Assembly (NCBI GenBank): GCA_963805085.1
Contig: CAWDTA010000002.1
Location: 448,001 to 512,000 of the forward strand
Direction: 5' to 3'
Length of the DNA: 64,000 nucleotides
Source: an uncultured Veillonellaceae bacterium
GTDB lineage: Bacteria; Bacillota; Negativicutes; JARBTT01
Shown piece after piece: positions 28,148 through 45,394 of this stretch. The translations under genes were made by a program, and so were the position numbers. The notes below the pieces were generated by a model, which was given only the letters and a program-made list of their open reading frames with translations, had not been told where the DNA came from and made no database searches. Numbering within the stretch: the first letter of the stretch is position 1; each line of letters starts with the position of its first letter.

Positions 28148-28177
28148 AAAATTTAAACTTGATTGGAGATTATGAAC

Positions 28178-28858: not shown

Positions 28859-28888
28859 GGTTAATAAGAAAATAAGTATTTAAATTAT

Positions 28889-28937: not shown

Positions 28938-28983
28938 GGTATACTATAGCTATGAATGATTACAAAATAAAGGGGCGTTTTCT

Positions 28984-29888: not shown

Positions 29889-30635
29889 TTACTTTGTATC
29901 GCCTGTCCACATGTCGAAAACTAAGTCTTTACTCCAAAAAGAATATGGCAGATAAAAATAGCCCTTATCGCCCCATTCTTTGCCCCATGAATTACGGCAA
30001 ATAACAACACTATTAGCGTTATCATAACCAACGGCTAAAACTGCATGATTACCCAACAATTTTTCTCCTTCTTCAGGGAGCGGAGCCCATCCTGTATTGG
30101 TTACATCATCCGATTCAAAAGATTCGTACACAGCAAAACCAAATACAACCGGGATATCTTCCGACAAAGACGCCTTGAGCTTTGTTAAACTAAGTATACG
30201 GCTGTATTGGCTTATTTTATACTCTGCTGCATCAGTTTCGGCTTTTGCACTTGGCTTATTAGTAAATTTGCTTATGTCATACGGAAAGTCAACCTCCGGA
30301 CATACACCAATGTTTTTCAATACTTTCATGCCGTCACGAATAGAAGCTCCTGCATCCGTGCTTACAGTCCCTTCTAAATAACGCTCATGCCAATATAAGA
30401 ATAATCTTGATAATGCTGTATAAGATACATTGTCTCTTAGTTCAAGAAATTCTCGTAACCCACTTGCCATTGCATTTGCTGTACAAGAACCTAAATCTCC
30501 CTGATCTACAACGTCAGACATTTCATCACGAAGATCAATCTTGCTAGCTAAGACTTCCTTTATTACTTCTGTCTTATAAATATAATCTCGTAAATCAGGC
30601 TCGTCCTTTTTAAGTCCATAAATTCTTTTTCCCAT
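29889..30635 (-). CDS. C1 (papain-like) cysteine peptidase, no signal peptide
   Basis: DQGDLGSCTA (Cys), NHAVLAVGY (His), RNSWGKEWGDKGY (Asn). Confidence 0.92.
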   Translation of the reverse strand: MGKRIYGLKKDEPDLRDYIYKTEVIKEVLASKIDLRDEMSDVVDQGDLGSCTANAMASGLREFLELRDNVSYTALSRLFLYWHERYLEGTVSTDAGASIRDGMKVLKNIGVCPEVDFPYDISKFTNKPSAKAETDAAEYKISQYSRILSLTKLKASLSEDIPVVFGFAVYESFESDDVTNTGWAPLPEEGEKLLGNHAVLAVGYDNANSVVICRNSWGKEWGDKGYFYLPYSFWSKDLVFDMWTGDTK

Positions 30636-30726
30636 TTTGTATTTCCTCCAAATTTTTATTTGAAAATCGAAATAGCCAAGGACCTCTTTTTGCTATCTGT
30701 GTATCCTGCATCTCGACCCTCATATA

Positions 30727-30777
30727 TATATACATTTATTCAAGCTTAATTTTTAAATGGGTAAAACTAAAAATCTA
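30727..30777. repeat. 51-bp direct repeat, copy 1
   Basis: TATATACATTTATTCAAGCTTAATTTTTAAATGGGTAAAACTAAAAATCTA, identical to 32275-32325. Confidence 0.95.
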
Positions 30778-30983
30778 AAAATCTAAGAAGGCACCTACCT
30801 CAAAAATTAGATAAATGCCCTTTGATCTGATTATATATTATTTTTGTTTAACTATTTAACTTAAAAATGTTAGCTTGATTATGCATCATGAAGTTCAAAG
30901 TAATACGCATATTAATACACAGTTAGGTAAAGATTTTGTAAGTCAGCAATGGAAGGGGCGGCTAAAAGCAACTATAAATTTGA

Positions 30984-32165
30984 TTAGCTTTTTGGAGTTA
31001 GTTTCCCCCCATCGGTCAAGGTATGGCTCTTATTCCCAAGCCAGCCGTTTGCCGTGAGGCTAGAATCGTAATAGATCGTGTATCCATTGTCATCGATGTT
31101 GGCAAGGGTGGAGTCCCCATCGGTCAGACTCGTCAAATACGAAGTCCCTGTCACACTCCAGATGCTGGTTGAATCAAGAGTTAATGCCGCCGAATTGATT
31201 GTACCTGTCAGTTTTGTACAATTTTTGATTGTAGCCGTGATTGAGCTGATGCTATCACAGATCAGATCACCAGTAAGGATTTCACCATTAGCCGTGAAGA
31301 CCGCGTTACCACCATTTTTCCCTGTATTACCCCATCTTTCAGTAGCAGCAGCTTGGATAAGTATTGCCGAAGGGAAAGTGAGCTCCACACCAGTCAGATT
31401 GATTTCCGCTGTCGTGTTTGTAACAAAGAACAAGGGTCCAGATTGCGCTGTGAGCGATCCACTGTTCATCGTAAAGGTTCCTTTTTTACCTTCAGCATCA
31501 CCAGAATCACTTTGATATATCATCACCCCCCGGTTTTTTGCGCCCAACAGGGTAGTGTCAGTCAAGGTTATAAAGTTTTCCCCTTCTATCACGGCAGCTT
31601 CTGCCCCCAAGGCTTTAATTGTGGAACTAGAAATCGTAATATCTCCCGTTGAATAAACACCTGGGGAGTCTGTCCCTGATGTCGTCGCTACAGAATTATT
31701 AGCGGTTATCACCCCATTCCCCCTGTCTGTAGCAAAAGCTGCGCAATGGGCTCCCTCAGTGCTGATACTTATGCTGTTGGCAGTTACGGTGCCGGTTAAA
31801 GTCGCATCCAAACCACGGGCAGAATCGCCTGTTGTCTTAATGTTAACGTTAGACAGAGTAATCGCCGAGTCGGCACCTGTTGCGAAAAGTGCATTGGCTC
31901 CATTGCCACTTGTAATTACCGAACAATTGGAGATGGATATTTGACTAGCCGCTTCTGCCAGCACACCAGCGTTAAGACCATAAAAATTGCTATTGTCCTC
32001 TGAAGTAGTGTGACCTGTCGTCGTCACGGATGAATCCGACAAATTTAAAATACCGCCATTGGTGACTTTAACCCCGGACTCATCGGTATTAGAAGTAGTA
32101 TATGCCTGATTCTTCACGGTTGTAGCCCCGCCACTTTGATAGTACGCCATAGATTCTGTACTCAT
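30984..32165 (-). CDS. Ser/Thr/Gly-rich predicted parallel beta-helix protein
   Basis: Repeating (I/V)xTxG..(A/S).G(L/V) turns (SNFYGLNAGVLA, ATDRGNG, DSPGVYSTG); AGGAGG RBS. Confidence 0.7.
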   Translation of the reverse strand: MSTESMAYYQSGGATTVKNQAYTTSNTDESGVKVTNGGILNLSDSSVTTTGHTTSEDNSNFYGLNAGVLAEAASQISISNCSVITSGNGANALFATGADSAITLSNVNIKTTGDSARGLDATLTGTVTANSISISTEGAHCAAFATDRGNGVITANNSVATTSGTDSPGVYSTGDITISSSTIKALGAEAAVIEGENFITLTDTTLLGAKNRGVMIYQSDSGDAEGKKGTFTMNSGSLTAQSGPLFFVTNTTAEINLTGVELTFPSAILIQAAATERWGNTGKNGGNAVFTANGEILTGDLICDSISSITATIKNCTKLTGTINSAALTLDSTSIWSVTGTSYLTSLTDGDSTLANIDDNGYTIYYDSSLTANGWLGNKSHTLTDGGKLTPKS

Positions 32166-32274
32166 TATTCTCTCCTCCTAATTCTAATAATATTTGTCTG
32201 AAAAATTCAGAAAACCAATATAACCAAGAAACTCATCTTATTTACCATGTGTTTTCTGTATATTGACTTTCACT

Positions 32275-32325
32275 TATATACATTTATTCAAGCTTAATTT
32301 TTAAATGGGTAAAACTAAAAATCTA
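32275..32325. repeat. 51-bp direct repeat, copy 2
   Basis: Identical to 30727-30777. Confidence 0.95.
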
Positions 32326-32568
32326 TAGATTCATTGATAAAACAAAAATATTAGAAATAAAAATTACGCATTAGCACATATAAAATAAACGATATTTAAG
32401 ACAGATAAAAGCTCTCCTTTCGGTAGCTGGTTATTATGATTTAACCTGCCTGCCATAGGGGAGCTATTAATTAGCTGCTAGTTGTGCCTTTTTCCGCGAA
32501 ATATTTCCAATCGAACTTTAGAGACTCCATATTCCTTGGTTTGCTTTCCTCCTCTAATGATTCCTTTT

Positions 32569-32793
32569 TTAATTCGCATAGATAATGTCTCTAAATTCTT
32601 CAAATGGAATCTCGTCAGCTATTTCAGTGACTTGACCAACTAGCGAAAAATTATATATATTAACTGCATCTTTCCACTTGATCATCACATATTCTTTGCA
32701 ATTTAAATCTATAATGAGTTTAACTGTAAAATCAGCGTTCTTTGTTTCTTCAGCAATAATTGTGTCTTTTGTTGTTCTATAGATTTTATACAT
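32569..32793 (-). CDS. Small hypothetical protein
   Basis: 74-aa ORF with an AGAGG RBS. Confidence 0.5.
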   Translation of the reverse strand: MYKIYRTTKDTIIAEETKNADFTVKLIIDLNCKEYVMIKWKDAVNIYNFSLVGQVTEIADEIPFEEFRDIIYAN

Positions 32794-32941
32794 TTACAAA
32801 ACCTCTATTTCCCAAAAAGACATATCTTGTCCCTTGTAAATAGAATGAACCTCTCCCTTTGGTTGTGGCGAGGAGGCTTCCTCGCCACACGCTGGTGCGA
32901 TACTTTGACCACAGCTTTTTACTACTTTGTACTGATACCAA
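32786..32941 (-). CDS. Possible 51-aa basic small ORF (MVSVQSSKKLWSKY...GFVNV)
   Basis: TTG start after AAGGGGG; stop overlaps the start of the next gene; not in ORF track. Confidence 0.3.
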   Translation of the reverse strand: MVSVQSSKKLWSKYRTSVWRGSLLATTKGRGSFYLQGTRYVFLGNRGFVNV

Positions 32942-33034
32942 TTTTATATCCCCCTTCATCATTCTGTAGGAGGTTTCTTCTATCCGCTGACACAGATAGA
33001 AAAAACCAGCATACAGTTTGTTTCAGGGGAAATT

Positions 33035-33299
33035 AAAAAAGCGCATGCGAGGTTATTCCAACCTACACATGCGCTATACTTCATCTTGATTGCATGCAGA
33101 CGCTAAGCCTCTGCCAAAACTCCAATCGTATTATACCGGACGAACGGACTATCTCCCTTGTAATCAAGGGAAAAGCACGGTATAATAAATTGTCGTCGTA
33201 GACAGCTAGCTGTTACGTGTAGGTGCCAACACACCTGCTCGTGCCTGTGAGTGCTCTAACACTCTCAGGACACGGCGACTTTCTTAATTTCCACCTTAT
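33035..33299 (-). ncRNA. Candidate structured non-coding RNA
   Basis: TTGCAA-N16-TATAAT promoter (33306-33333), multi-hairpin domain 33192-33279, second stem 33129-33187, terminator 33035-33075; no long ORF. Confidence 0.55.
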
Positions 33300-33368
33300 T
33301 CCTTAATTATAATCCATTTTTTAATGATTGCAAGTAAAAGTAAGTCGAAAATATGATTTTTTTATATA

Positions 33369-33416
33369 GAAAAAGCGAGGTTAGCGGATTTTTACGTCCG
33401 TCGACCTCGCTTTTTC
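33369..33416. terminator. Terminator downstream of ABC-F
   Basis: GAAAAAGCGAGGT...ACCTCGCTTTTTC. Confidence 0.7.
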
Positions 33417-33483
33417 TTTATCAACTTACCATGAATCTAGGAACACTTCAAAGCGTTTAAGAAGCTTCATGTAGATGTTATTA

Positions 33484-33512
33484 GGGTGTACCCCTGACTT
33501 TGTGCAAACTCC
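33484..33512. mobile_element. Possible isolated IS terminal inverted-repeat remnant (IS256-like end)
   Basis: GGGTGTACCCCTGACTTTGTGCAAACTCC resembles IS256-family ends from memory; no transposase or partner end is visible. Confidence 0.3.
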
Positions 33513-33518
33513 AATTGG

Positions 33519-33560
33519 CATAGGAAAGCTTGAGGATATAGCGAGTCCAGACAATTTATT
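33519..33560. repeat. 42-bp direct repeat, copy 1 (duplicated fragment of the Cof gene)
   Basis: CATAGGAAAGCTTGAGGATATAGCGAGTCCAGACAATTTATT, identical to 40225-40266. Confidence 0.95.
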
Positions 33561-33595
33561 TAATCAATAATATTTGCAAGAATAAAAATTAGAAG

Positions 33596-35515
33596 CTAGG
33601 AACCGTTTATTTTTAGCCATTCCTGATACAGTGCCCCCTTAGTATCTTCCCATTCTTTTTTTTGCAAAAGTAAAGGTTCCATCGTAAGAAAATCGCTGCC
33701 ACATAATTGCATTCGAGTTTCTAGAGCAGCAAGTGCTGATTCTAGTTCCTGAATAGCGTTTTCAATTTTTTCAATTTCTACAATAGCCTTTTTAGAAATA
33801 GTTTCTGTATGTACGGAAACAGGTAGTTTTGTAACAATTCTGGAACTTTTATGAACATCAGTTATTTTGCCTTCCGTATGCCTAGTCTGATATTCTAACT
33901 GCTCATTTCTTATTTTTTTTTGTAGGTAATAATCATAATTACCATCATATTTAGTTAATTTACCATTCTTTAATTCCCAAATTCGAGAAGCAAATTTGTT
34001 AATAAAATATCGGTCATGAGATACAAACAACACAGTGCCTTTAAAATCATCTAATGCTTTTTCTAGCCATTCTCGTGAATCGATATCCAGATGGTTGGTC
34101 GGTTCATCGAGCAATAGCAGATTAACGTTGTTTTGCATCATTAAGCAAAGCCGCAGTCTACTCTTCTCTCCTCCAGAAAGTTTACCTGTCGTCCTATATA
34201 CGCCTTCACCTTTAAAACAATATCTTGCTAGTATGTGGCGGGCATCATTTTCGCTTATATCTAACTCATAGCTTACTGTTTCCAGTACACTAAGCATGGG
34301 GTGTGAAAAAGTAACTATTTGTGGCAAATAAGCATACTTGATACTATTGCCAAGTTTAACTTCGCCAGCGTCAGGAATTATTTCGCCAGTAATTATTTTT
34401 AATAATGTAGATTTTCCAGAGCCGTTTATACCCAACAAGACAGTCCTTTCACCTCTATACAAGGTAAAGTCGAGACTGTTAAGAATATTATGATCGTCAA
34501 AGTTTTTACTTAGATTCTTGGCAACAAGAACTTCCTGCCCTGAGAAAGTATGTTCGTTAAATTTCGTTTGCATTCGTTGCTCATATTGTGGTCGCTCGAC
34601 TTTTTCCATCCGCTCAATGCGTTTTTCCATGTTTAAGGCTCTTTTGTGCAGAGACGGACTATCGCCACGTTGTGCCCACTCATGCAATTGTTTGGCTGAA
34701 TTTTGCATTCGCTTAATTTTTTTTTGTTCTTGATTAAATTCCTCTTGACGCTGTAGACATCGAGCTTTTTTTTCAGCCACAAAGTATGAATAGTTACCTT
34801 CATATAGATCGATTTTTCCGTCAGATAATTCAACAATACGAGTTACTACTTGATTAAGAAAATATCGATCATGAGATATGACAACGACAGTCCCCTTATA
34901 TTCGTGTAAGAATTTTTCCAACCATTCGATAGCAGTAACATCCAGATGATTTGTTGGTTCGTCGAGCAGGAGAATTTGCGAATTATTAATCAATAATCTG
35001 CCTAACATAACCCTTGTTTTTTCCCCACCGCTCAACATAGAAAAATTAGTCGCTAATAGTTCGGAACTGAATCCAAGACCAGTACACACCTTCTTAATGT
35101 TTTCTTCCATTTCATAGCCATGCCTAGCTTCAAAGTTTTGTTGCAGGTGCCCGTACTTTTCCAAGGTATTATCAATATCGGTGACATCAGTCATTGTTTG
35201 TTCCAATGCGATCATTTGAGCTTTAATTTCAAGTAAATCACTATAAGCTGAACAAAGGGCTTCATATGCAGTATAATCCTCAGGAAAGTCGGTGAATTGT
35301 TCCAAAACGCTCACGAGAGATCCTTTTCGAATCATTACCTCTCCGTTGTCACTTGGAATAACACCTGCCAATATATTTAATAAGGTTGTTTTCCCTGTCC
35401 CATTTTTACCTAATAAACCAATTCGTTCACCTATTTGTATTTCAAAAGTAACTCCCTTGATCAAATGGTCGGCACCATAGTATTTTTCAATGTCACGCAA
35501 AGCTATTTCAATCAT
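33596..35515 (-). CDS. ABC-F family ATPase (ribosome-associated, ribosomal-protection-like)
   Basis: Two ABC domains (GKNGTGKT/LSGGEK/DEPTNHLD; GINGSGKS/LSGGEK/DEPTNHLD), no TM segments, helical linker and C-terminal coiled coil. Confidence 0.92.
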   Translation of the reverse strand: MIEIALRDIEKYYGADHLIKGVTFEIQIGERIGLLGKNGTGKTTLLNILAGVIPSDNGEVMIRKGSLVSVLEQFTDFPEDYTAYEALCSAYSDLLEIKAQMIALEQTMTDVTDIDNTLEKYGHLQQNFEARHGYEMEENIKKVCTGLGFSSELLATNFSMLSGGEKTRVMLGRLLINNSQILLLDEPTNHLDVTAIEWLEKFLHEYKGTVVVISHDRYFLNQVVTRIVELSDGKIDLYEGNYSYFVAEKKARCLQRQEEFNQEQKKIKRMQNSAKQLHEWAQRGDSPSLHKRALNMEKRIERMEKVERPQYEQRMQTKFNEHTFSGQEVLVAKNLSKNFDDHNILNSLDFTLYRGERTVLLGINGSGKSTLLKIITGEIIPDAGEVKLGNSIKYAYLPQIVTFSHPMLSVLETVSYELDISENDARHILARYCFKGEGVYRTTGKLSGGEKSRLRLCLMMQNNVNLLLLDEPTNHLDIDSREWLEKALDDFKGTVLFVSHDRYFINKFASRIWELKNGKLTKYDGNYDYYLQKKIRNEQLEYQTRHTEGKITDVHKSSRIVTKLPVSVHTETISKKAIVEIEKIENAIQELESALAALETRMQLCGSDFLTMEPLLLQKKEWEDTKGALYQEWLKINGS

Positions 35516-35787
35516 GAAACATACCTACATAAAGCAGCACTATTCGTTGCTTTGCATATATTTTTGCTTCCAACATGCATTCCCCCTTAATCAAGACATT
35601 GCGTTAACAAGCAAATTTTACATTACATTTAAGCTACGAATATTTTTATTTCAACTAAATTGTCCACTGCTCATCTTCCTTATTTATTCCTATTTACATT
35701 AAAATACCATAATATCCAATAAAGAACAACAGGTTTATATGAGCCATTAATCAATGAATATTTTTATAACTTTAATAAAAATATTTA

Positions 35788-35816
35788 TTGATTAAAATTG
35801 TAAATAATGGTAAATT
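35788..35816 (+). promoter_or_regulatory. sigmaA-like promoter for the RiPP operon
   Basis: TTGATT-N17-TAAATT with extended TGn. Confidence 0.5.
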
Positions 35817-35842
35817 AAATATAAACATATATGTTTATATTT
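35817..35842. promoter_or_regulatory. Perfect 26-bp palindrome over the predicted transcription start (candidate operator)
   Basis: AAATATAAACATATATGTTTATATTT is its own reverse complement. Confidence 0.55.
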
Positions 35843-35861
35843 GTAAAAGGAGGAATAAAAG

Positions 35862-35921
35862 ATGTCTATTAAAAAAATTGCTAAAACATCTACAATTGCA
35901 TCAATTACTCATAGAAGCTAA
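35862..35921 (+). CDS. Putative RiPP precursor peptide MSIKKIAKTSTIASITHRS (19 aa)
   Basis: Perfect AAGGAGG RBS, ATG at 35862, TAA at 35919-35921, directly upstream of the ThiF gene; below the ORF-track size cutoff. Confidence 0.8.
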   Translation: MSIKKIAKTSTIASITHRS

Positions 35922-35982
35922 TTCCTTGGTGGAAGCATCATAGTGCTTCTATCCATTTTGTTTGTTAAATAATAACAATAAT

Positions 35983-36023
35983 TTGCAAAAAGGACTAGCA
36001 TAAAATGCTAGTCCTTTTTGCAA
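35983..36023 (+). terminator. Stem-loop/terminator between precursor and ThiF genes
   Basis: TTGCAAAAAGGACTAGCAT-AAA-ATGCTAGTCCTTTTTGCAA perfect 19-bp inverted repeat. Confidence 0.8.
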
Positions 36024-36049
36024 GCATATCAATATGAGGAGAGTTGAAA

Positions 36050-37084
36050 ATGAGATATACCTTTTCACCATTAGCTCTTTTTTTTCAAAATGTAGAAGAT
36101 GTATTTATTATATATAACGACGAAATTTTATGTATTGAAAATTGTACTGATGATATTTTAAAGGGTATTGCATTAATTAAAAGAGGATGTACTGATACAC
36201 AACTAATACAAGAATTAGGTAAAGAAGAGACAACTAAATTAATAAATTCAATGCAAGATTTTGATTTAATAAGAATTAACTATAAAAACGAATTTTCAGA
36301 AAATATAGTAGAACGACAAATTTACTTTTTCGATACCCTATCACAAAACCCAAATGAAATACAAAAGAATCTTCAATCAAAAAGAATTTGTATTTTAGGA
36401 ATGGGTGGTGTAGGATCAATTGTATTCCAACACTTAATTGGAGCTGGTATCAAGTCGTTCATTATTATTGATAGCGATATTATTGAGGTATCTAATTTAA
36501 ATAGACAATTTATGTTTAACTCAACACAAATAAATCAATTAAAAGTTGAAGCAGCAAAAGAATATGCAAAAAACATAGATGCTAATATTGATGTTAGTGG
36601 ATATGCTAAATTTATTAATTCAATAGAAGATTTATATTTTTTAAAAGAGAATAAAATTGATTTTTTTGTTTGTGCTGCTGATTTACCGCCTGGCAAGATT
36701 CAAAATATTGTTGGCGAATTTTGCAAAGAAAATAAGATTCCATTTTCTTTTGGGTCTGTAGGAATAAACTTTGGTTCATGGGGACCATTGATTATACCAG
36801 ACAAAAGCATATGTTGCTACGATTGTTTTCGCCGCGAAGAAGAAAGGTTAATGTCAGATGTGGAAAAAAGGATATTAAAATGTGCAAATGAAGTTATAAA
36901 AGCTTCATTTGGGCCAACTAATACTGTGATTTCTGCTTTTTTAGCAAAAGATATTATTATGTTTCTATCTGGAAGTAAAGATATTCAAACAATGAATACT
37001 CGAACTTATTTAAACTTCCAAACAATGGAAACTACAAGAGTTTCAGGAAAATCATGCAAATGTAAAACTGCTATAAATTTTTAG
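36050..37084 (+). CDS. ThiF/MccB-like adenylyltransferase with an N-terminal extension (possible RiPP recognition element)
   Basis: ILGMGGVG, DSDIIEVSNLNRQ, GPLIIP, CCYDC and C-terminal CKC; about 90-aa N-terminal domain; GAGGAG RBS before ATG at 36050. Confidence 0.88.
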   Translation: MRYTFSPLALFFQNVEDVFIIYNDEILCIENCTDDILKGIALIKRGCTDTQLIQELGKEETTKLINSMQDFDLIRINYKNEFSENIVERQIYFFDTLSQNPNEIQKNLQSKRICILGMGGVGSIVFQHLIGAGIKSFIIIDSDIIEVSNLNRQFMFNSTQINQLKVEAAKEYAKNIDANIDVSGYAKFINSIEDLYFLKENKIDFFVCAADLPPGKIQNIVGEFCKENKIPFSFGSVGINFGSWGPLIIPDKSICCYDCFRREEERLMSDVEKRILKCANEVIKASFGPTNTVISAFLAKDIIMFLSGSKDIQTMNTRTYLNFQTMETTRVSGKSCKCKTAINF

Positions 37085-37087
37085 ATA

Positions 37088-38350
37088 ATGGAGAATCAAG
37101 TGAATAAAATGTTGGATTATTATAATAATTTAATTAGTATTAACAAAGATATAGTAAAATTAAATATATCTTCTTTTTTTTACAGTTTGTTTTTTGATAG
37201 GGCAATTTGGACATTATTTTTATTAGAAAAGGGATTAGATGGGTTACAGGTAGGTCTTGCAGAATCTTTGTTACACATATCAATTGTTTTATTCGAAGTA
37301 CCTACAGGGATCATAGCCGACATTTATGGGAGAAAAATAAGTTTAATTATTTCGAGGATAATTTCTATTATTTATGCTGTAGGATTAATGTCTGTGAATA
37401 ATATTTGGAGTATCTATTTTATATTTATTCTATTTGGATTAGGATCAACATTTTCCTCAGGGTCGGATACTGCGCTTCTATATGATTCTATAAAAGGTAA
37501 TAAAAAAGAAAAAGATAAACAATTCACAAAAATTAACGGTTACTATGGTGCATTTATTACAGCAGGTTTGACCTTAGGCATGTTTTGTGGCGGATTTTTA
37601 CAGTCTGTATCATGGAATACGGTATATCTTTATATAGCAGTAGTTCAAGTAATATCAATTATACCATTAATAAATATGACAGATAACTCTGGGCTAGTTA
37701 AGGCAAAACAGGGAAAAAACCAGGATTTTTCTTTCCTCGTTTGCTTAAAAAATTTAGTTATCAGTAATCTAATTGTTTTTAAAAATCGTTTATTTTTTAC
37801 TTTAGTAATAGGGATAGTTATTTTTACCGCGACAATTAATACACTTTATCTATTTATTCCAATCTGGTTTAAGGAGCAGGGATTTGATGAAATAATCATA
37901 TCTCAAATATTTACACTAGATTCTATTATTGGAATTATAGCTTATTCTTGTGCATATAAACTAGAAAAAAAAGTAAACATCTACACTTTATTGATAATAT
38001 TACCATTAATATCATTGATTGCTTTATTATTACTACCAATCACCAATAGTCTATCGCCTATATTATTCATCATTATTAACAATCTTGCAATTTTATTTTA
38101 TCCCTTATCCAGTGCCTTAATTAATAAATTAATAAAATCAGAAGAAAGAGCAACAATATTATCTTCAGTGAGTTTCTTAAGTTCAATAATTATAGCAATT
38201 CAGTTTCCTACCATTGGGTTTTTAACAAAATATATAGATACGGGATTTGTTTTATCAGGTCTTTCGATCTTTTGTTTATGTTCAATTATTTTACTTTGGC
38301 AAACCAATAGGAAGGGGATATTAAATTACAATGAAAAACGATATTCCTAA
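37088..38350 (+). CDS. MFS exporter
   Basis: FEVPTGIIADIYGRK and SGSDTALLYDS motifs, about 12 TM segments. Confidence 0.9.
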   Translation: MENQVNKMLDYYNNLISINKDIVKLNISSFFYSLFFDRAIWTLFLLEKGLDGLQVGLAESLLHISIVLFEVPTGIIADIYGRKISLIISRIISIIYAVGLMSVNNIWSIYFIFILFGLGSTFSSGSDTALLYDSIKGNKKEKDKQFTKINGYYGAFITAGLTLGMFCGGFLQSVSWNTVYLYIAVVQVISIIPLINMTDNSGLVKAKQGKNQDFSFLVCLKNLVISNLIVFKNRLFFTLVIGIVIFTATINTLYLFIPIWFKEQGFDEIIISQIFTLDSIIGIIAYSCAYKLEKKVNIYTLLIILPLISLIALLLLPITNSLSPILFIIINNLAILFYPLSSALINKLIKSEERATILSSVSFLSSIIIAIQFPTIGFLTKYIDTGFVLSGLSIFCLCSIILLWQTNRKGILNYNEKRYS

Positions 38351-39827
38351 TGATAATATTTTGGTGTTTAGCGTTGATACTGATTTTTTAACACTAGATC
38401 CTGCACTTGTCGATGATTATATCGGTTTAATTGTCTGTCAATCTTTATTCGAACCGTTGCTTATATTAGATCATAAAACTGGAGAAATCATTCCAGGTGC
38501 AGCAAAACATTATAAAATTTTGGATAATGAAAAAACATATATATTCTATTTAGACGAAAACAATAAATGGTCAAATGGCGAAACTGTAACAGCATTTGAT
38601 TTTGAATTTGCATTTAAAAGAATTATAGCTGCTAAAGAAAATTCTGGCGTCAGTTCATTAATTTTAGACATACTAAATTCTAATCAAATTATTAATAATA
38701 AAGTAAACGTAAATGAACTAGGAGTAAAAGCAATTGATGAATATATATTTGAAATAAAACTAAAAAGACCAGTTTCTCATTTTTGTGAATTACTTACTAA
38801 TCCTAATTTTGCGCCTGTTCCGCACAATGTTATCCGTATGCATGGCGATGCATGGATGCAACCGCAAAACTTTGTTTCAAATGGTCCGTTTATTCTAAAA
38901 GAATTAAAACGTAATAAATATATATTTGTTGAAAAAAATCCATATTATTTTAACAGTAACAATAAACAAATTCAAGGAATTAGGTTTTTAATTAATAACG
39001 ATTTCAATAAACAAATTAAATCTTATGAAGAAAATAATATTCACGTAACTTGCAATACGTTATTTCCGTATAATTTAATTGAGAATTATAAAAACTGTTT
39101 AGATTTTAATATAGAACCGTTTCTTTTATTATCATATATTAATATAAACTTTGCTAAAGGAGATTTCATAAATAAAAAAGTAAGACAGATGTTATATTAT
39201 GCAATCGATAAAGAATATATTGCTGATAAGTTATCGAATGGAATAAATTCAAATTATGATTTTGTTCCGTTAGGAATTAAAAATTATAAGCCAATTAATC
39301 CAATTTCTTATAATCCAGAAAAAGCAAGAAAAATATTATCCGAGTTCCCGAACATAAAGCGTACATATGAATTAATTTATGCAGATTTCTATCCTAATAA
39401 GGAAATCCTATCATACGTATCAAAATTCTGGGAAGAAGTATTAAATATTAAAGTAAATCTTCTCCCTGTATCATTTGACTGTCTTATAGATAAATTGTGT
39501 AATAATAATTTTGATTTATGTCTTTCATTAATAGCAGCAAGATATAATGAGCCATCAGCATATTTAGAAGATTTCGCCAAACCTAGTTTACTAATGAATA
39601 AGTATGACGAATATAATAAATTATTAGTAAAAGCAGTTGAGACACATAATGCAACTATAAAAAAAGATATCTACAAAGATATTAATAATATTCTTATTGA
39701 TATCTTACCTATATTTCCCTTGTTTTCTTTCAATAGTATATATTTGAAAAAACCCTATATAAAAAATTTTAAAATATTTCCTTGCGGTCATTTTTCATTT
39801 AGAGATTTAGATATAGAAAAAATTTAG
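38331..39827 (+). CDS. OppA-like family 5 peptide-binding protein lacking a signal peptide
   Basis: TLDPA, KWSNGETVTAFDFEFAFKR, SNGPFILKE, KNPYY and YNPEKARKIL motifs; no lipobox or hydrophobic leader. Confidence 0.85.
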   Translation: MKNDIPNDNILVFSVDTDFLTLDPALVDDYIGLIVCQSLFEPLLILDHKTGEIIPGAAKHYKILDNEKTYIFYLDENNKWSNGETVTAFDFEFAFKRIIAAKENSGVSSLILDILNSNQIINNKVNVNELGVKAIDEYIFEIKLKRPVSHFCELLTNPNFAPVPHNVIRMHGDAWMQPQNFVSNGPFILKELKRNKYIFVEKNPYYFNSNNKQIQGIRFLINNDFNKQIKSYEENNIHVTCNTLFPYNLIENYKNCLDFNIEPFLLLSYININFAKGDFINKKVRQMLYYAIDKEYIADKLSNGINSNYDFVPLGIKNYKPINPISYNPEKARKILSEFPNIKRTYELIYADFYPNKEILSYVSKFWEEVLNIKVNLLPVSFDCLIDKLCNNNFDLCLSLIAARYNEPSAYLEDFAKPSLLMNKYDEYNKLLVKAVETHNATIKKDIYKDINNILIDILPIFPLFSFNSIYLKKPYIKNFKIFPCGHFSFRDLDIEKI

Positions 39828-39969
39828 CAACCGATATTAGCAGGTAAAAACATCTGCTGAATTTCATGACAAAAAAATGGTAACAGCCTACATGCACTCA
39901 CATCAGTTCCAATTCCGCCTCCTATCATCACCACAAGTATTCTGTAATTGCGTGATACGAAGACACATA

Positions 39970-40833
39970 TCAATCCTCCAATATGCGATAAATCGCCTTT
40001 GCTACACCATGTTCTGCATTACTTGCAGTTATATATTTTGCCACTTTTTTAATTTCCGGTATTGCATTTCCCATAGCAAATGAATTTGGAAACTCTACAA
40101 ACATTGAATAATCATTGGAACTATCACCTAAAACAGCGACTTCTTCTTTTCTTATCCCTATTTTTTCTGCAACTTTAGCTAATATGCGTCCTTTGGTGGC
40201 ATTAACATCATTCACTTCAATATTCATAGGAAAGCTTGAGGATATAGCGAGTCCAGACAATTTATTCAGCGCTTGCTTAAGCACATTGATCTCATCAATT
40301 GACCCTGCAAAAGAAACAAATTTACCTATATTTATATCACTTTTCAAGAACTCCTGCAAATTTGTTATGTATTTCATCTTAGCAAAATGAGGATGCGTTA
40401 TCGCATGTTGATAAATTTCATCTGAATCTATAAGCGCGGGATAAAAAGCTTTTACTCTTTCTATCATTCCTTTTAAGGTTTTTTCCTTTGTATTCGTTGT
40501 ATAATATCCATCATCGGTATATATTTCAGCAGCTGCATCATAATTTGCCATTATATTTAAAATTTGAACTGCTATACTTTTATCAATATAGATCCCTGCA
40601 ACGATCTCACCGGCAATATCCCTATATTCTCCGCCATTTAAGACAACGCATTCACATGTTAAGCCACACTCATCTAAGAATGGTTTAACATCTTCATATG
40701 CTCTGCCGGTTGCAATCGCAAAGACAATACCTTTTTCTTGTGCCATTTTTATAGCTGCTATATTTTCCTTTGATATTTTTCGATTCGTTCCTATTAAAGT
40801 TCCATCCATATCAGATGCAATCAATTTTATCAT
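39970..40833 (-). CDS. Cof-type HAD-IIB family hydrolase
   Basis: ASDMDGTL, ATGR, TKG, GDSSND and AMGNA motifs; ATG at 40833 after GAGGAG. Confidence 0.92.
   Translation of the reverse strand: MIKLIASDMDGTLIGTNRKISKENIAAIKMAQEKGIVFAIATGRAYEDVKPFLDECGLTCECVVLNGGEYRDIAGEIVAGIYIDKSIAVQILNIMANYDAAAEIYTDDGYYTTNTKEKTLKGMIERVKAFYPALIDSDEIYQHAITHPHFAKMKYITNLQEFLKSDINIGKFVSFAGSIDEINVLKQALNKLSGLAISSSFPMNIEVNDVNATKGRILAKVAEKIGIRKEEVAVLGDSSNDYSMFVEFPNSFAMGNAIPEIKKVAKYITASNAEHGVAKAIYRILED
40225..40266. repeat. 42-bp direct repeat, copy 2 (inside the Cof gene)
   Basis: Identical to 33519-33560. Confidence 0.95.
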
Positions 40834-41015
40834 TTTAAAACTCCTCGTACACTTTCTTAAATTAATTACTTTTAACAATATACCTAATTATAAGTTTACC
40901 TATATTTTATTTACTACATATTTTTATAATGTAAAAGCTTAAATAACTGATTTATCACTTATATGAGCAATAAAAATCTGGTGTAACCCTTTATCGAGGC
41001 AGCACCAGATTTTTA

Positions 41016-41648
41016 TTATTCGCTTACTTTGGCTTGTTCCAATTCAGCAACATACGCTGTCATTACAGAATCTATTTTATCCAAAACAAAACTACGTGTG
41101 AAAATATCAATCTTAAAATTTTCATCTTCATCATCATTGCGAGATATCTTAAAGATAAGCGGCACGCTCGTACCTTCATAGGTTACATTAGCTTGACAAT
41201 TTTTATCAATGTCTTTTTCTGCCTTGCGAGCAGCATGAATAACACGTTCTTGCTCTATTGGATCAAGGTCCTTATCAAAAATCCCATTTAAACGTTCAAT
41301 AAACCCATTGATTTCAAGAATTGAGTCAAGCACAATTGTTGCTTGCTCGACCTCATACATTTTTTCGGGATAATACTCCTCAATAAAAGCACGCATATCA
41401 GGATTATCTTCATAATCTTCAAGCTCGTCTTTTTTTCCCAATAACGTTTTTCCCCAGCTAATGATTTGTAAGATCGGCAAGCAAATAAACATCAAAAAAA
41501 AGGCTATTTTAAGCATATTATCGTTCACCGGCATTTGCGAGTTCAAATAGCGTTCTAATACTGCCATATCTTTTCTATCTTTATAATATAGACCACCTGC
41601 AATGATAATATACAATGCTAGACTTAAACTAACTACCAAGCTATTCAC
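41016..41648 (-). CDS. Hypothetical membrane-anchored protein
   Basis: 210 aa, two N-terminal TM segments and an acidic soluble domain. Confidence 0.65.
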   Translation of the reverse strand: MNSLVVSLSLALYIIIAGGLYYKDRKDMAVLERYLNSQMPVNDNMLKIAFFLMFICLPILQIISWGKTLLGKKDELEDYEDNPDMRAFIEEYYPEKMYEVEQATIVLDSILEINGFIERLNGIFDKDLDPIEQERVIHAARKAEKDIDKNCQANVTYEGTSVPLIFKISRNDDEDENFKIDIFTRSFVLDKIDSVMTAYVAELEQAKVSE

Positions 41649-41869
41649 CCCAAACTATCGCATCGAACAAACTGTCCCTTTGATATTAATTTATATAATA
41701 AATTCTATTATAGCATATTTTTAAATCCAACTGCTTTTTGCTATAACGATTATTCAATATTATACTTCGTTTCTTTGTATACATGAAACCTACAAAATAA
41801 AACTAGGCTACGCGAGGCGATTCATCCATGCGTAGCCTAGTTTAGTTTATTTATCTTAGTAATTACTGT

Positions 41870-43438
41870 TTATTTTTCTATTTCTACACTTGCCTCAAAC
41901 ATTCTATTCCATGGAAAATCTACGTTTACTTTCGTAAAATCGAACCCTTGTAGATGGTCCTTGGCAAAGGCATTCATTTTCTCATTGGCGGATTTTACAA
42001 TTGTCGGTTTTGCTAAATCGAGCTTGCTATAGTTGCCACCTTTTAAGTGATTTAGCTCCCCAGCAAGTGTTTGACGAATATTAGCTTGATAAGCCCAGTC
42101 ATCCATAAGTCTAACACTAAGCAGGCGATTTTTATCTTCCAACTTCATCTTATCTACTAAAATGCCTTGACCAATAGCAAAACCAGCACTATTGTTCGCA
42201 GTATTCCAACCAGAATATGCCGCTAATTTATTTAATAATCCCTGTTTCTCAAGCTCTGACATCAACGCATTATCTGCTCCATTTGCAAAAGAGATATCCG
42301 CAATGGCAACAGGATAGCCACAATTTAAATACCGCTTGACTTCATTAACAAAAGCTTTGGTATTAGCATGTACTGCGGTTGTATTCGTTGGATAGTTAGC
42401 CTCAGATGTCACTCCATCCTTAGCGGTATTTACCAACAATACCAAATCAGCACGTTCCGTCGTTGGAACAGGAATTGCCCCACTAGCAAATAAATGTGAT
42501 TGAATGGACTTTCCGATTGCCTCGTCAGAATAAGTCGGCACCGTATCAGCGCCAACCCCCTCAGCGTAACGCACCGCGACAAGCGGAATATGCCAATTTA
42601 AATCATTACTTGCCCGTGTTAACAGAACCATCCCCATTTCATCAATACCAGCTAAAGCCTGGAACTTTGACACGCCCAGCTCCTCGCCTTGACTACTGAG
42701 CAAACGACTTTCTTTATGGGTCTGTGAAAACGGCGCGTTGTCATCGCGACCAAGCGCTAGATATTGAAATACATTGCTTTTTGCAAGTTCTACCAATTTT
42801 GTATTGGCTGCAAAATTTTTGCTTCGACGATCCATCCAGTCGCTAACTGCCTCTTTTGGAACACTTTTTTCTAATTTTGCAACTTGTCTCTTTTCCGCTC
42901 TTGTTAGACGATCGCTTTCTTCTTTATCTTGCAAAGAAGTTAAGGTAAAAATATCTGGTCCATATTTAGCATAATAGCTAGGTTCTTCACCGCCGTCACT
43001 GCTCCTTGGCGAACGCATAATGGAACCAAATACATAGATTTTTAAATTAGGGTTTTCTGCGTGCAGCTTTTCAAAATTATCTACACGTTTTAAAACAGCT
43101 TCACTCGTTAACGTATGTTTACGAGAAGCAACTAAACTGCCATAAAGGAGGGAATCCGACGATAAAACAACAGCATCCGTCTTCTTTGCATTGGTAAATA
43201 ACCATTGCCAAAGTTCCTCTGGTTTTCCTAAGGAGGTTCGGCTACCTAACAATTCTGTGGGTGGCACGAGTACATCATAGTCAAGTTTCTTTACCGTATC
43301 CAATGTTTGCGCAAACGAAATTGGACGGTCATCATGCGGAATAAAGATGATTTGTGGCCTAATTGCCGCGAATACTGGCACCTCAGCAAAAGCCGTATAA
43401 AAACACAAAACAAAAACCATAAGTACTTTTTTATACAA
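41870..43438 (-). CDS. DUF4127 family exported protein
   Basis: Signal peptide; IPHDDRP, LYGSLVASR, GRDDN, GIDE, NGAD, YSGWNTANN and FPWNRMFE motifs. Confidence 0.8.
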   Translation of the reverse strand: MYKKVLMVFVLCFYTAFAEVPVFAAIRPQIIFIPHDDRPISFAQTLDTVKKLDYDVLVPPTELLGSRTSLGKPEELWQWLFTNAKKTDAVVLSSDSLLYGSLVASRKHTLTSEAVLKRVDNFEKLHAENPNLKIYVFGSIMRSPRSSDGGEEPSYYAKYGPDIFTLTSLQDKEESDRLTRAEKRQVAKLEKSVPKEAVSDWMDRRSKNFAANTKLVELAKSNVFQYLALGRDDNAPFSQTHKESRLLSSQGEELGVSKFQALAGIDEMGMVLLTRASNDLNWHIPLVAVRYAEGVGADTVPTYSDEAIGKSIQSHLFASGAIPVPTTERADLVLLVNTAKDGVTSEANYPTNTTAVHANTKAFVNEVKRYLNCGYPVAIADISFANGADNALMSELEKQGLLNKLAAYSGWNTANNSAGFAIGQGILVDKMKLEDKNRLLSVRLMDDWAYQANIRQTLAGELNHLKGGNYSKLDLAKPTIVKSANEKMNAFAKDHLQGFDFTKVNVDFPWNRMFEASVEIEK

Positions 43439-43456
43439 AAGCTAACTCCTCCTTCT

Positions 43457-44134
43457 TCACTTAAGAATATTTTGCAACATATTTTTAACTGTATCAGGTA
43501 AGTTAAGAGCAGTTTTAAATTCTACATACCCATCTTTAGGCACAGCTTGTTCAATAACAACAGCATCACTCAGGGAATAACCAAATAACTCTGCCTGACC
43601 AAAACTTGACTCTTTCAATGCATCTTGAAAATCTACCGTTACAGTATTGCCAGAGATCTTCGTCTTAACCGTATCGCCAAGATTTACTTTGCCAACAAAT
43701 TTTTCCGCCATTGATAAACTTATCCGCGAAAAAATCCAGGACATGGTCCCATTGTCAGGTAAATCTTTTTCTAACACTTTAAACTTTAAAACTGAAGTAT
43801 CTTTACTATGCTCAAATTGTTCAATCCGGCATAATAATATCACCTTGCCAATTTTTTTCGTATCCGCTGTTAGCTTCATTTTACCATCACCAACAGAAGT
43901 AACTTGCAGCGACTTAATAGCTGAATTCTCATCAATTGTTTTAGCAATGGATTCATTAATGGTCTCATCTGGAACTGAAAGTTTACCTTCTTTGAGCTGC
44001 TCTAACGTTTGCGTATCCCAAGTCTGACGAACAACATTAATCACGGGTGTTAAATTGTCAATCTGCCCGCTAAGATCACTAAGATTGATATTACCAAGCA
44101 TTTCACTTGATAGATCAATTGGCATATCTATCAT
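43457..44134 (-). CDS. Hypothetical protein
   Basis: 225-aa ORF with a GGGAGG RBS, co-oriented with its neighbours. Confidence 0.7.
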   Translation of the reverse strand: MIDMPIDLSSEMLGNINLSDLSGQIDNLTPVINVVRQTWDTQTLEQLKEGKLSVPDETINESIAKTIDENSAIKSLQVTSVGDGKMKLTADTKKIGKVILLCRIEQFEHSKDTSVLKFKVLEKDLPDNGTMSWIFSRISLSMAEKFVGKVNLGDTVKTKISGNTVTVDFQDALKESSFGQAELFGYSLSDAVVIEQAVPKDGYVEFKTALNLPDTVKNMLQNILK

Positions 44135-44240
44135 ATTCTATGGCCTCCCTAATTTGTCCTAACTAATATTAGCATCTGTTTGCCAATTCATTATACACCA
44201 ACCATGAGGCAATTTCTATTTCCTTATTTTACAGACAACT

Positions 44241-44942
44241 CTAAACGGATTCTTTCCGCATATCTTGCCATAAATCACGGGCCAAATTATAAATAGCTGG
44301 CTCCATTTTTGAACGTTTTTCACCAATCACTCGGCTCAGATATTGAACTGCTTTTTCCGTATTGCCCGTTCTTCTATAGAGTTCACCAATCAAATACGTA
44401 GCCGCTGTATCGGTCATACTGCCGATTGGAAAACGTTCTGTTGTCAACGCTCTATCATATCCTTCTAAAGCTCTTATTAATACCTCTTGTTCTTTTTCCT
44501 TTGCCTCAGTGCTTGCATCGCTATCTTCCTCGCCAGCTTCACGATATAACCAAGCTAATTTCAAATACAGCCCTGCCTTGCGACTCTCTGGTGATTCAAT
44601 TAAATCTGCATAATAAAGTGCTAATTTAAATGCATTAATCGCATCACCTCTTGTTCTTACTTCCTTGTATTCAATTTTCACTTTTCTATCTTTTAAAAAC
44701 TGGATGATTTTCTCTTTTTCTTTTTCTCTCAATGTATCAAAATGCTTTTCATCTGAAGCATAACCACAATGCGAACATACCCAAATATCATAGTAATATG
44801 GATTAAACTCCTTGTAATGTACACAAAAATCGCTATCCTGTTTTATTTTAATCAATCGCGACCGTGTTTTAGTCACTTGAAACTTTTCCCCACAAATGGG
44901 GCATTCTCTCTCTACCGAATATGTAAAGCCTACTGCCATCAA
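44241..44942 (-). CDS. DUF2225 family protein (Zn ribbon plus TPR-like)
   Basis: CPIC...DSDFC...NPYYY...CSHCGYA, LKLAWLYR and YLIGELYRR motifs. Confidence 0.85.
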   Translation of the reverse strand: MMAVGFTYSVERECPICGEKFQVTKTRSRLIKIKQDSDFCVHYKEFNPYYYDIWVCSHCGYASDEKHFDTLREKEKEKIIQFLKDRKVKIEYKEVRTRGDAINAFKLALYYADLIESPESRKAGLYLKLAWLYREAGEEDSDASTEAKEKEQEVLIRALEGYDRALTTERFPIGSMTDTAATYLIGELYRRTGNTEKAVQYLSRVIGEKRSKMEPAIYNLARDLWQDMRKESV

Positions 44943-45394
44943 AGTTCATCTCCCTATTATAATCAACACCCATGTTAAATCTATTTCTTATCTACCCATG
45001 AATCTCCTAGTCGTTTCTCCCCCTCTTTTTCACGCCCAGCAGCAAATCACGTTGTCAACTTCATTTCTATATGAATAAAAATAAACCTTATGAACTATTC
45101 ACACTTGGACTATTGCTCTAATGATTGGTCACTATTATATATATCGAATAAAGTGCCAATTTCATAAACACAAACTTATAGAATACTCATTTTATTTTTC
45201 ATGTAAAAATCACCTAATTTTCCATTTTATCAGTAAAGAATATAATGTTTTACAATCAGAACCCACTTTTTTTATTTTTTTCTTCCAGAAAAAATGTTAT
45301 GATAATATTATCAAACATGTTAAAAGGATTTTACTCTTTTCTCAGTTTTATTGTAATCATCCAATTTTTAGCATATGAAAAAGGAGTATTTACG

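Follow-up and report, generated by a model that had tools for sequence, protein, structure and literature searches.

What does a ThiF-type adenylyltransferase make when it is encoded together with a 19-residue peptide, an exporter of the major facilitator superfamily (MFS), and an OppA-like oligopeptide-binding protein that has no signal peptide? The question is raised by an AT-rich operon of an uncultured Veillonellaceae bacterium (GenBank assembly GCA_963805085.1, contig CAWDTA010000002.1, positions 448,001 to 512,000 of the forward strand). This stretch of 64,000 nucleotides is called the window, and coordinates given without a locus name are counted from its first letter. A preliminary description had proposed that positions 35788-39827 hold an undescribed system for a ribosomally synthesized and posttranslationally modified peptide (RiPP). 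The assignment to a RiPP locus is supported by the MccB-like enzyme and by conserved precursor peptides in related loci, and from the sequences compared we judge it quite probable that the locus is a RiPP operon, minimal and intact, from a ThiF-dependent family that has yet to be characterised. The precursors of this family end in Arg followed by Cys, Ser, or Thr, a pattern abbreviated here as R-[CST].

The operon and its MccB-like enzyme

The four genes are on the forward strand. The precursor peptide gene (35862-35921) encodes 19 residues, MSIKKIAKTSTIASITHRS, with an Arg-Ser end (...THRS) and with no Asp, Glu, Cys, Gln, or Asn. The ribosome-binding site that had been claimed for this open reading frame (ORF) was recovered as a strong Shine-Dalgarno site, AAAGGAGG (35846-35853, forward strand), 8 nt ahead of the ATG. 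Downstream lie the genes for the MccB-like adenylyltransferase (36050-37084, 344 aa, PF00899, with GAGGAG at 36036-41), the MFS transporter that is the presumed exporter (37088-38350, 420 aa, PF07690 with an E-value of 3.1e-30), and the leaderless OppA-like protein (38331-39827, 498 aa, PF00496 (SBP_bac_5) with an E-value of 6.4e-59), so that all of the members listed in the preliminary description were found. The last two genes overlap by 20 nt. All four reading frames are intact, their ribosome-binding sites are good, and the genes are translationally coupled. The AT-rich character of the operon was borne out by a GC content of 0.24-0.29 across 35500-40000 vs 0.30-0.47 in the flanks. The short ORF stands above chance because of the comparison with other loci presented below, and not on the basis of the window alone.

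Where one strong hairpin had been noted, two were found between the precursor and the enzyme. Hairpin 1 (35928-35963, forward strand) is terminator-like, with 11 pairs in a stem-loop at 35928-35953 and a T-rich tail, CATTTTGTTT, directly 3' of the precursor gene. Hairpin 2 (35983-36023, forward strand) consists of a perfect stem of 19 bp and lacks a T tail on that strand, and it may be an RNA stabiliser or processing site or an attenuator. The RNA fold of the intergenic segment was calculated to be -51.5 kcal/mol (z of -7.1), and none of 200 shuffled sequences was as stable. No Rfam family was matched at gathering thresholds within 28000-46000. The last codons of the precursor at 35911-35918 (ATAGAAGC) are complementary to positions 35945-35952 (GCTTCTAT) in the 3' arm of hairpin 1. 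Since the end of the ORF can pair with this arm, translation could choose between an anti-terminator and a terminator, as has been proposed for mccA.

The adenylyltransferase is MccB-like and is not a housekeeping ThiF, MoeB, or TcdA protein, a grouping that would have spoken against the RiPP reading of the preliminary description. PF00899 covers residues 103-341 (E-value of 3.4e-40), and the translation shows the motifs GMGGVG, SNLNRQ, and CYDC. A profile built from the window enzyme and ten relatives matched structures in the PDB in the order MccB (6.6e-46, query residues 54-337), PaaA (1.2e-21), MoeB (2e-19), and ThiF (2e-16). The NCBIfam models for ThiF, MoeB, and TcdA all score far under their cutoffs (for example, 92.9 vs 275 for TIGR02356), and separate short housekeeping ThiF-type genes are found on contig C5 of the same genome. 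The housekeeping proteins have about 240-270 aa and no peptide clamp. The N-terminal domain that had been described as an addition to the ThiF fold corresponds to residues 1-102, which match no Pfam family. In the AlphaFold2 model of the enzyme (pLDDT of 93), residues 1-100 are folded into four strands and three helices. A Foldseek search with this model returned full-length MccB with TM scores of 0.79-0.81 over about 345 columns, compared with 0.73 for PaaA and 0.54-0.60 for MoeB and ThiF. Since the superposition spans about 345 columns, the match to MccB takes in its N-terminal peptide-clamp domain, and the first 100 or so residues of the window enzyme are thus predicted from the model to be a peptide-clamp domain resembling a RiPP recognition element (RRE).

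A word-indexed search of 5.8 billion proteins yielded 2493 candidates, 16 of which matched the enzyme at E ≤ 1e-3. Besides the window's own entry, 10 homologues cover at least 85% of the query with identities of 36-51%. No full-length match was found in 40 related genomes, where the best hit had an E-value of 6.9e-18 over residues 103-236. By these searches the enzyme is rare. No variation was seen among 26 aligned sequences at G117, G119, G120, G122, D141, D143, N149, N151, R152, K165, and D211, and the nucleotide-site residues (GxGGxG, D141, NxNRQ, K165, and D211) are kept in all 26. The cysteines of the CxxC...CxC pattern are at least 90% conserved among the 11 closest sequences. Two quick maximum-likelihood trees were calculated with 43 and 44 ThiF-type sequences. 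All of the R-[CST] enzymes fall on one side of a branch with SH-aLRT support of 88-93, and MccB, IndF, the VEGR and GGR types, and the GrcB-like enzyme of plasmid pMCCL1 fall on the other. The window enzyme was grouped with six metagenome proteins with a support of 98-99.

Precursor peptides in related loci

Additional ThiF loci were obtained by scanning genome, metagenome, and plasmid collections and Streptococcus genomes. Precursor ORFs with an R-[CST] end were found in 24 loci from four phyla, including the window and a plasmid of Staphylococcus aureus. In the precursors found, Arg is always the penultimate residue and Cys, Ser, or Thr is always the last; none of them ends in Asn. At the other end, the 10 precursors of 15-19 aa all have Ile, Leu, or Val as their third residue, giving a Met-x-[Ile/Val/Leu] start. 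Three relatives besides the window (loci L012, L024, and L056) have no Asp or Glu in the precursor; peptides of this kind come from Rummeliibacillus (MRIVKVKPTTKRLIVNRS, in three tandem copies), Thermoactinomyces (MKIKRIKPTSSRPMAVRS), and a metagenome contig (MKLKKLRGSTARGLVKRC). Acidic or mixed precursors were found in Bacillus atrophaeus (...LVQRC), B. changyiensis (...LVHRC), the locus of a multispecies Bacillota protein (...LVHRC), two streptococci (MVVTKDEARELTRRC and MIVTREEAREMHVRC), S. aureus plasmid pF5 (MKVTKKTSREMVKRT), Arthrobacter (...IVHRS), Achromobacter (...DTRRC), Trinickia (...FVRRT), and metagenome contigs (...FVRRT, ...LVRRT, ...LTYRT, and ...MVHRC). Many of the relatives' precursors carry an Asp or Glu 4 to 10 residues ahead of the C-terminal end.

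The association of these ORFs with one kind of ThiF enzyme was counted against control loci. We considered ORFs of 10-75 aa that have a Shine-Dalgarno site, end in R-[CST], and lie no more than 450 nt upstream of the ThiF match. Such an ORF was present in 17 of 17 listed family loci (19 of 41 ORFs) and in 0 of 54 other ThiF loci (0 of 84 ORFs). Among the controls, which included L057 and L063, were housekeeping genes, MccB, IndF, and the VEGR and GGR types. The count of 17 of 17 is not blind because the family loci were listed after the ORF had already been seen there. When loci were instead chosen by a criterion independent of the ORF, namely an SBP_bac_5-like (SBP5-like) gene in the locus, an R-[CST] ORF was present in 15 of 16, the exception being L051, a short GC-rich contig. 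By both counts the homologues keep a short upstream ORF, as the preliminary description had expected. No R-[CST] precursor was found at L051/L052 (metagenome, with the SBP5-like gene upstream of ThiF), L021 (Scytonema), or L025 (Lachnospiraceae), and there are no R-[CST] ORFs in a separate clade comprising L057, L058, L060, L061, and L063. A hairpin between the precursor and ThiF was predicted in 9 of the 9 family loci that were folded, most of them with U-rich tails. As-stable structures were obtained in 0 of 200 shuffles for five of these loci and in 2 to 28 of 200 for the other four.

The precursors of cyanobacteria are longer. In seven of the eight cyanobacterial loci (L015-L020 and L022, from Nostoc, Brasilonema, and Iphinoe) there are one to four tandem precursors of 62-71 aa, located 2-3 kb upstream of ThiF. 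These have a double-glycine leader and a Cys/Ser/Thr-rich core that ends in ...SRT, ...PRT, or ...GRT. The example of L016 spans 3026-3726 and 3854-7899. Its neighbouring genes include two of the HopA1 family, one with a weak, kinase-like match to APH (E-value of 0.009), a luciferase-like oxidoreductase, and an 824-aa ORF on the opposite strand for a putative ATP-binding cassette (ABC) transporter with a peptidase domain. This layout may be a hybrid of the class V lanthipeptide-like kind.

Two further loci may be described here. On S. aureus plasmid pF5 (L104, NZ_AB765928.1), positions 4642-8689 hold the precursor MKVTKKTSREMVKRT, ThiF, an SBP5-like protein, an M3 oligoendopeptidase-like protein, a GNAT protein, and a divergent MFS gene. 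The ThiF query matched 21 plasmid records, 19 of which are from Staphylococcus and are taken as S. aureus plasmids with this cluster; these plasmids are mobilizable. In Rummeliibacillus pycnus (L012), the three tandem precursors are identical (5596-5834) and lie near a gene for a regulator of the RNPP family (1862-2752, reverse strand), a quorum-sensing type. The R. pycnus cluster may be under the control of a peptide pheromone.

The OppA-like protein and accompanying genes

The OppA-like protein aligns from about position 40 of the OppA profile and is thus without a signal peptide. Its reading frame cannot be extended upstream, and there is no hydrophobic leader from residue 1. The AlphaFold2 model (pLDDT of 94.4) was matched by Foldseek to peptide-bound OppA and MppA with TM scores of 0.86-0.87 and to open MppA with 0.75-0.77, and the predicted shape is that of the closed, peptide-bound OppA fold. 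None of the 16 aligned SBP5-like family members has a signal peptide or lipobox, and the sole invariant residues among them are a Gly, a Pro-Asn pair, and a Pro. The nearest relatives are about 500 aa long with identities of 33-55%, followed by ordinary OppA proteins (520-560 aa) at 30% or less; two of these relatives, P0018 and P0019, share their sources with ThiF relatives, and for P0019 the longest contig (9377) is equal in length to that of a ThiF relative. A protein entry of 329 aa (P0017), flagged as the window's own, is identical to 66% of the OppA-like protein and could stem from a shorter gene call or from a partial copy. No ORFs resembling the OppBCDF permeases and ATPases were found within 33000-43000. 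By its model, the protein would presumably be an intracellular, cytoplasmic oligopeptide binder, and by its sequence conservation it is probably not a catalyst. A prediction of the complex between ThiF and the OppA-like protein gave a score of 0.00, which is not evidence either way.

The preliminary description had expected homologues to keep both the exporter and the leaderless SBP_bac_5 protein, and to a large extent they do. A leaderless SBP5-like gene lies beside ThiF in 16 loci outside the cyanobacteria, with variable support: by tblastn in the window, L011, L012, L013, L024, L051, L054, and L056; by Pfam matches of 1e-9 to 8e-15 in L104 and L064; by weak Pfam matches of 3e-5 to 3e-3 in L053, L055, L029, and L023; and by similarity to a family member alone in L100 and L014. 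None was seen in L059. An MFS gene is present in at least 12 family loci. SBP5-like and MFS genes adjoin ThiF in Bacillus, Rummeliibacillus, Thermoactinomyces, Streptococcus, a Staphylococcus plasmid, Arthrobacter, Achromobacter, and metagenome contigs. The MFS protein of the window is most like the drug and tetracycline efflux families, each match being below its cutoff. The role that we favour for the OppA-like protein is sequestration or immunity, or hand-over of the peptide to the MFS exporter, because the protein accompanies MFS exporters and is unseen in L016, where the exporter is apparently different.

Other genes accompany ThiF in parts of the family. JmjC/cupin hydroxylases are encoded in L012, L013, L024, and L029; a B12 radical-SAM RiPP C-methyltransferase (TIGR03975, 573 bits) with a DUF5825 protein in L012 and L024; an RNPP regulator in L012; a nitroreductase (by Pfam) in L055 and possibly also in L014; an M3 peptidase in L104, with a homologue in L100; and a GNAT protein in L104. 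An ABC-F ATPase that passed the model for ribosomal protection-like proteins is encoded in L011 and L054 and, by similarity, in L013, and in all three loci the gene is placed after MFS inside the operon. In the window, a divergent neighbour (33596-35515, reverse strand, 639 aa) encodes an ABC-F ATPase that scores 529.6 bits against NF000355 vs a cutoff of 380. It shares 37-39% identity with the in-operon ABC-F proteins and lies in DNA of higher GC content, and it is uncertain whether it belongs to the cluster. The ABC-F neighbours hint at a target in translation, or are a coincidence.

Proposed reaction and its alternatives

The window cluster was compared with the literature in PMC12250964, PMC12596934, PMC11256085, PMC12150305, PMC13361665, PMC4010828, and PMC13381572 and in a preprint on tiarins. 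The comparison covers the searchable text of these papers, without supplements or subscription journals, and the statements cited below are limited to that text. ThiF-like enzymes are described there as adenylating a carboxylate that is then attacked by an internal nucleophile (PMC12150305; PMC12596934), and in all of the characterised RiPP ThiF-like enzymes this attack is intrapeptide (PMC12150305; PMC12596934; PMC12250964). Since the window peptide contains no Asp or Glu, its C-terminal carboxylate is the sole group open to adenylation, and the reaction would begin there if this peptide is the substrate. The interchange of Cys, Ser, and Thr at the end of basic and acidic peptides from four phyla suggests a role for the β-heteroatom, and the invariant Arg points to recognition or participation.

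We propose the following sequence of events. A leaky terminator would keep the precursor transcript in excess of the enzyme transcript, as in mccA, where partial termination is reported to give a high ratio of precursor to enzyme (PMC4231749, available text); the hairpins with U-rich tails fit partial termination of this kind. The N-terminus of the 19-mer (Met-x-Ile-Lys-Lys-Ile) would be held in the clamp with the Arg-Ser end at the ATP site, and ThiF would adenylate the C-terminal α-carboxylate. The acyl-adenylate would be captured inside the peptide with loss of AMP, for a net change of -18 Da, in a step that would need the terminal β-OH or β-SH residue and probably the adjacent Arg. The MFS protein would export the product. 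The cytoplasmic OppA-like protein would bind the peptide part, either for immunity and sequestration or for hand-over to the exporter. The outcome of the capture can be stated only tentatively. A C-terminal oxazolone, possibly dehydrated to an alkylidene-oxazolone and with precedents in OxzB and TcdA, and a macrolactone or lactam formed with a Thr, Ser, or Lys further upstream appear to us equally possible, and for the latter a conserved Thr/Ser 9-10 residues upstream of the end is a candidate partner. An acyl-guanidine with Arg18 is rather less likely, as is a peptide on which the nucleotide stays; a β-lactone is more doubtful again, and the remainder falls to some other outcome.

The alternative that survives best, which we consider improbable, is a product of the true microcin C type, a peptidyl-nucleotide, or more loosely any peptide with AMP or another nucleotide kept on its last residue, which would act as a Trojan horse on translation. 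MccB is the nearest solved relative in both sequence and fold. The order of precursor, hairpin, ThiF, and MFS is that of mccABC on the Escherichia coli plasmid, a gene for a leader peptidase is missing from both clusters, the precursor is short, and a ribosomal protection-like ABC-F protein is encoded in or beside four loci. However, the precursor of the window has 19 aa and an Arg-Ser end vs 7 aa and Asn in microcin C, the window has no homologues of MccD, MccE, or MccF and does have the extra cytoplasmic OppA-like protein, and its ThiF enzyme lies across a supported branch from MccB. Moreover, acyl-adenylates of Ser, Cys, or Thr would be labile. The chemistry of MccB requires the C-terminal Asn, the side-chain amide of which proceeds through a succinimide to the N-P bond (PMC12150305; PMC12250964). 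Since the window peptide ends in Arg-Ser and not in Asn, as does none of the family precursors found, true microcin C chemistry is excluded. The analogy drawn in the preliminary description thus stands for the gene order and the enzyme and fails for the chemistry.

Less probable again is that the short ORF encodes a regulatory leader peptide, with ribosome-dependent attenuation through the two hairpins, and that the molecule handled by ThiF, MFS, and the OppA-like protein is a different one. With its 19 codons and a terminator-like hairpin after them, the ORF has the classical layout of an attenuator, the pairing between 35911-35918 and 35945-35952 would serve such a switch, and the MFS protein is closest to drug efflux pumps. 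Yet both ends of the peptide are conserved across phyla and track one clade of clamp-bearing enzymes, and the tandem copies and the cyanobacterial double-glycine leaders with Cys/Ser/Thr-rich cores are typical of RiPP precursors. Regulatory and substrate roles are also compatible, as for mccA.

A GrcB-type reaction, in which the side chain of an Asp or Glu is activated and the side chain of the terminal Cys, Ser, or Thr closes a lactone or thiolactone, has a precedent in GrcA of Streptococcus pneumoniae, a 39-residue GRC-motif peptide with a thiolactone between Cys39 and Glu35 made by the ThiF-like GrcB (PMC12250964; PMC12596934). The GRC system shares with the window a ThiF-like enzyme and an RRE domain, and in GRC peptides it is the side chain of the last residue that reacts. 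An Arg-Cys end can be assumed for GrcA from the motif name and Cys39 of the 39-mer, and many of the relatives have an Asp or Glu 4 to 10 residues from the end. For the window this reaction is excluded by composition, since its peptide, like those of L012, L024, and L056, contains no Asp or Glu, and we regard the GrcB-type explanation as very improbable. The window differs further from GRC clusters in its Ser rather than Cys end and in lacking an Rgg regulator, and no ORFs for the two radical SAM enzymes and the stand-alone RRE of GRC clusters were found in 33000-43000. GrcB was sought in Streptococcus genomes, 25 of 251 of which gave a match at E ≤ 1e-25, and a 39-aa precursor with a Gly-Arg-Cys end was found in none of the 29 Streptococcus loci returned. 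Since no such precursor was found there, the comparison rests on the Macrococcus plasmid cluster that a review names as GRC-like, and the enzyme of that cluster falls outside the R-[CST] clade on a long branch. The precursor of this plasmid (L106, Macrococcoides caseolyticum pMCCL1, about 5545-5631) ends in ...EPGRN, with Asn and not Cys, and the cluster encodes ThiF, two radical SAM proteins, an MFS protein, and a GNAT protein.

The state of the cluster in close relatives was examined as well. Contig C150 of a same-genus genome, G001 (L069), is 96-99% identical over the aligned parts of 33525-41746. It is missing 35831-37018 (1188 bp, joint at 2837/2838 of L069), which removes the precursor, both hairpins, and all of ThiF save the last 22 codons. 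It is also missing about 38734-39636, an in-frame segment of 903 bp inside the OppA-like gene (L069 4531-4556) with 14-bp near-repeats at its flanks; the MFS gene is intact. In metagenome contigs from four runs of four studies of groundwater and soil, the 1188-bp joint was present in 4 of 4 runs and the 903-bp joint in 3 of 4. These deletion alleles imply that the intact operon is ancestral in the lineage and was lost in the sampled relatives. They suggest that the exporter was kept as an orphan, possibly for resistance. That the cluster is silent or decaying in this organism and gives no product, as the deletion alleles, the unsupported promoter, and the absence of a listed RNA run might indicate, is about as remote as the GrcB-type reaction, given the four intact frames with good ribosome-binding sites and translational coupling and the conserved catalytic residues.

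Several results weigh against the reading of the locus as an intact RiPP operon, or against parts of it. The cluster is dispensable, the precursor and ThiF having been lost in the sister genome and in 4 of 4 metagenome runs. The promoter that had been proposed, TTGATT and TAAATT with a 17-nt spacer (35789-35817, forward strand), did not hold up: a consensus scan of the region found 30 promoter-like sites vs 35.7 expected from shuffles, and the pair itself matches the consensus at 8 of 12 positions and is absent from the list of that scan. No RNA run is listed that contains this stretch. The window has no gene for a peptidase or for any other tailoring enzyme, and its ABC-F gene, at 37-39% identity to the in-operon proteins, may by sequence be a housekeeping gene. 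The root shifted between the two trees, which contain several long branches. Among the 16 SBP5-like proteins there is no invariant Cys, Ser, or His, which fits a putative binder. Finally, L016, the sole cyanobacterial locus (of eight) whose neighbours were examined, has no SBP5-like gene, and so the ThiF reaction can probably proceed without the OppA-like protein, and the role proposed for that protein is conjectural.

The remaining ThiF systems resemble the window in part. Like the window peptide, VEGR precursors are short and look leaderless, and an Arg is the last residue or its neighbour, as far as the class is described in the text of PMC11256085. They end, however, in Arg itself; in the one VEGR locus examined, the transporter is of the ABC type and there is no OppA-like gene; and the VEGR enzyme groups with IndF, outside the R-[CST] clade. 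No SBP5-like gene was found in the VEGR-type and GGR-type streptococcal loci. We know of no VEGR product. One VEGR precursor, MSIKKIATPATVVEGR (L081/L099, Streptococcus G175:C3, about 4268-4318 of L099), has the same first seven residues as the window peptide, which suggests from sequence a common motif for recognition by the clamp, even though the two ThiF enzymes belong to different clades.

IndF/EnfB (indolylamide/enterofaecin) and OxzB likewise adenylate a C-terminal carboxylate and close it onto a nucleophile of the same molecule (PMC12150305; PMC12596934). TcdA follows a similar logic. IndA and EnfA depend on a Trp close to a hydrophobic C-terminus, a feature that the window peptide does not have. 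OxzB is paired with a nitroreductase, as is the ThiF enzyme of L055, but the substrate of OxzB is an N-acyl amino acid and that of TcdA is tRNA, and neither is a ribosomal peptide. OxzB and TcdA are both oxazolone-forming. Pantocin A has a Glu-Glu-Asn core and the oxygenase PaaB, whereas the window has neither Glu or Asn in its peptide nor an oxygenase gene, and PaaA is a weaker match to the window enzyme than MccB. A link to the tiarins, which are trifolitoxin-like, was considered and rejected. The tiarins have a nitroreductase-like TfxB/TfxC pair and a conserved Gln in the core (bioRxiv 10.64898/2025.12.02.691738, available text), and the window has no TfxB/TfxC-like nitroreductase genes and no Gln in the peptide. 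The OppA-like protein shares its Pfam family and fold with OppA and MppA. It differs in having no signal peptide, lipobox, or permease genes and in sharing its operon with a biosynthetic enzyme and an exporter, and its closest relatives, of about 500 aa, come from the same kind of cluster.

The nearest known systems are therefore microcin C for the enzyme and the GRC peptides for the Arg-Cys end. The known ThiF-RiPP classes in the literature covered are microcin C, pantocin A, GRC, enterofaecin/WWIII, and indolylamide/NWYFI, to which the VEGR, NICxxxK, CxxxC, and GxxQY types have been added by bioinformatics. As described there, none of these combines an Arg-[Cys/Ser/Thr] end with an OppA-like protein. 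The searchable text contains no Arg-[Cys/Ser/Thr] ThiF family and no SBP_bac_5 protein in a RiPP cluster, so that, within that text, the system is undescribed, as had been claimed. A supplementary figure of PMC12150305 with a sequence similarity network is said to show more candidate clusters. The figure of GRC-like clusters in PMC12250964 names a Clostridium tagluense cluster "with proteins of unknown domains", which could be a member of the R-[CST] family.

ThiF-like enzymes are a fast-growing source of chemistry, which now includes phosphoramidate, indolizidinone, thiolactone, imide, indolylamide, and oxazolone products. The window cluster is a new variant within the ThiF-dependent RiPPs and the simplest representative found, with four genes and one enzyme, of a broad uncharacterised clade that follows a strict rule of Arg plus a β-OH or β-SH residue at the end. 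This simplicity and the strict substrate rule make it a clean system for finding the reaction. There is weak support for a product that is an antibiotic acting on translation rather than a signal. More speculatively, and in our view less likely than not, the Arg-[Cys/Ser/Thr] end may be converted to a new warhead, such as an alkylidene-oxazolone, a β-lactone or β-thiolactone, or a nucleotide end that mimics the 3' end of peptidyl-tRNA, which would hit the ribosome or translation. The cytoplasmic OppA-like protein would then be a decoy that holds the peptide until it is expelled by the MFS exporter, with ABC-F proteins helping in some of the clusters. No counterpart of an intracellular OppA-like protein is described for RiPP pathways within the searchable texts. 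If this warhead and decoy proposal is correct, the family would be a new RiPP class and would contain the first solute-binding protein to serve as an intracellular chaperone for an exporter or as an immunity factor. The family ranges from soil Clostridia and Bacilli through lanthipeptide-like clusters of cyanobacteria to mobilizable S. aureus plasmids of clinical isolates, and this wide range makes the product and its target of ecological, and possibly medical, interest.

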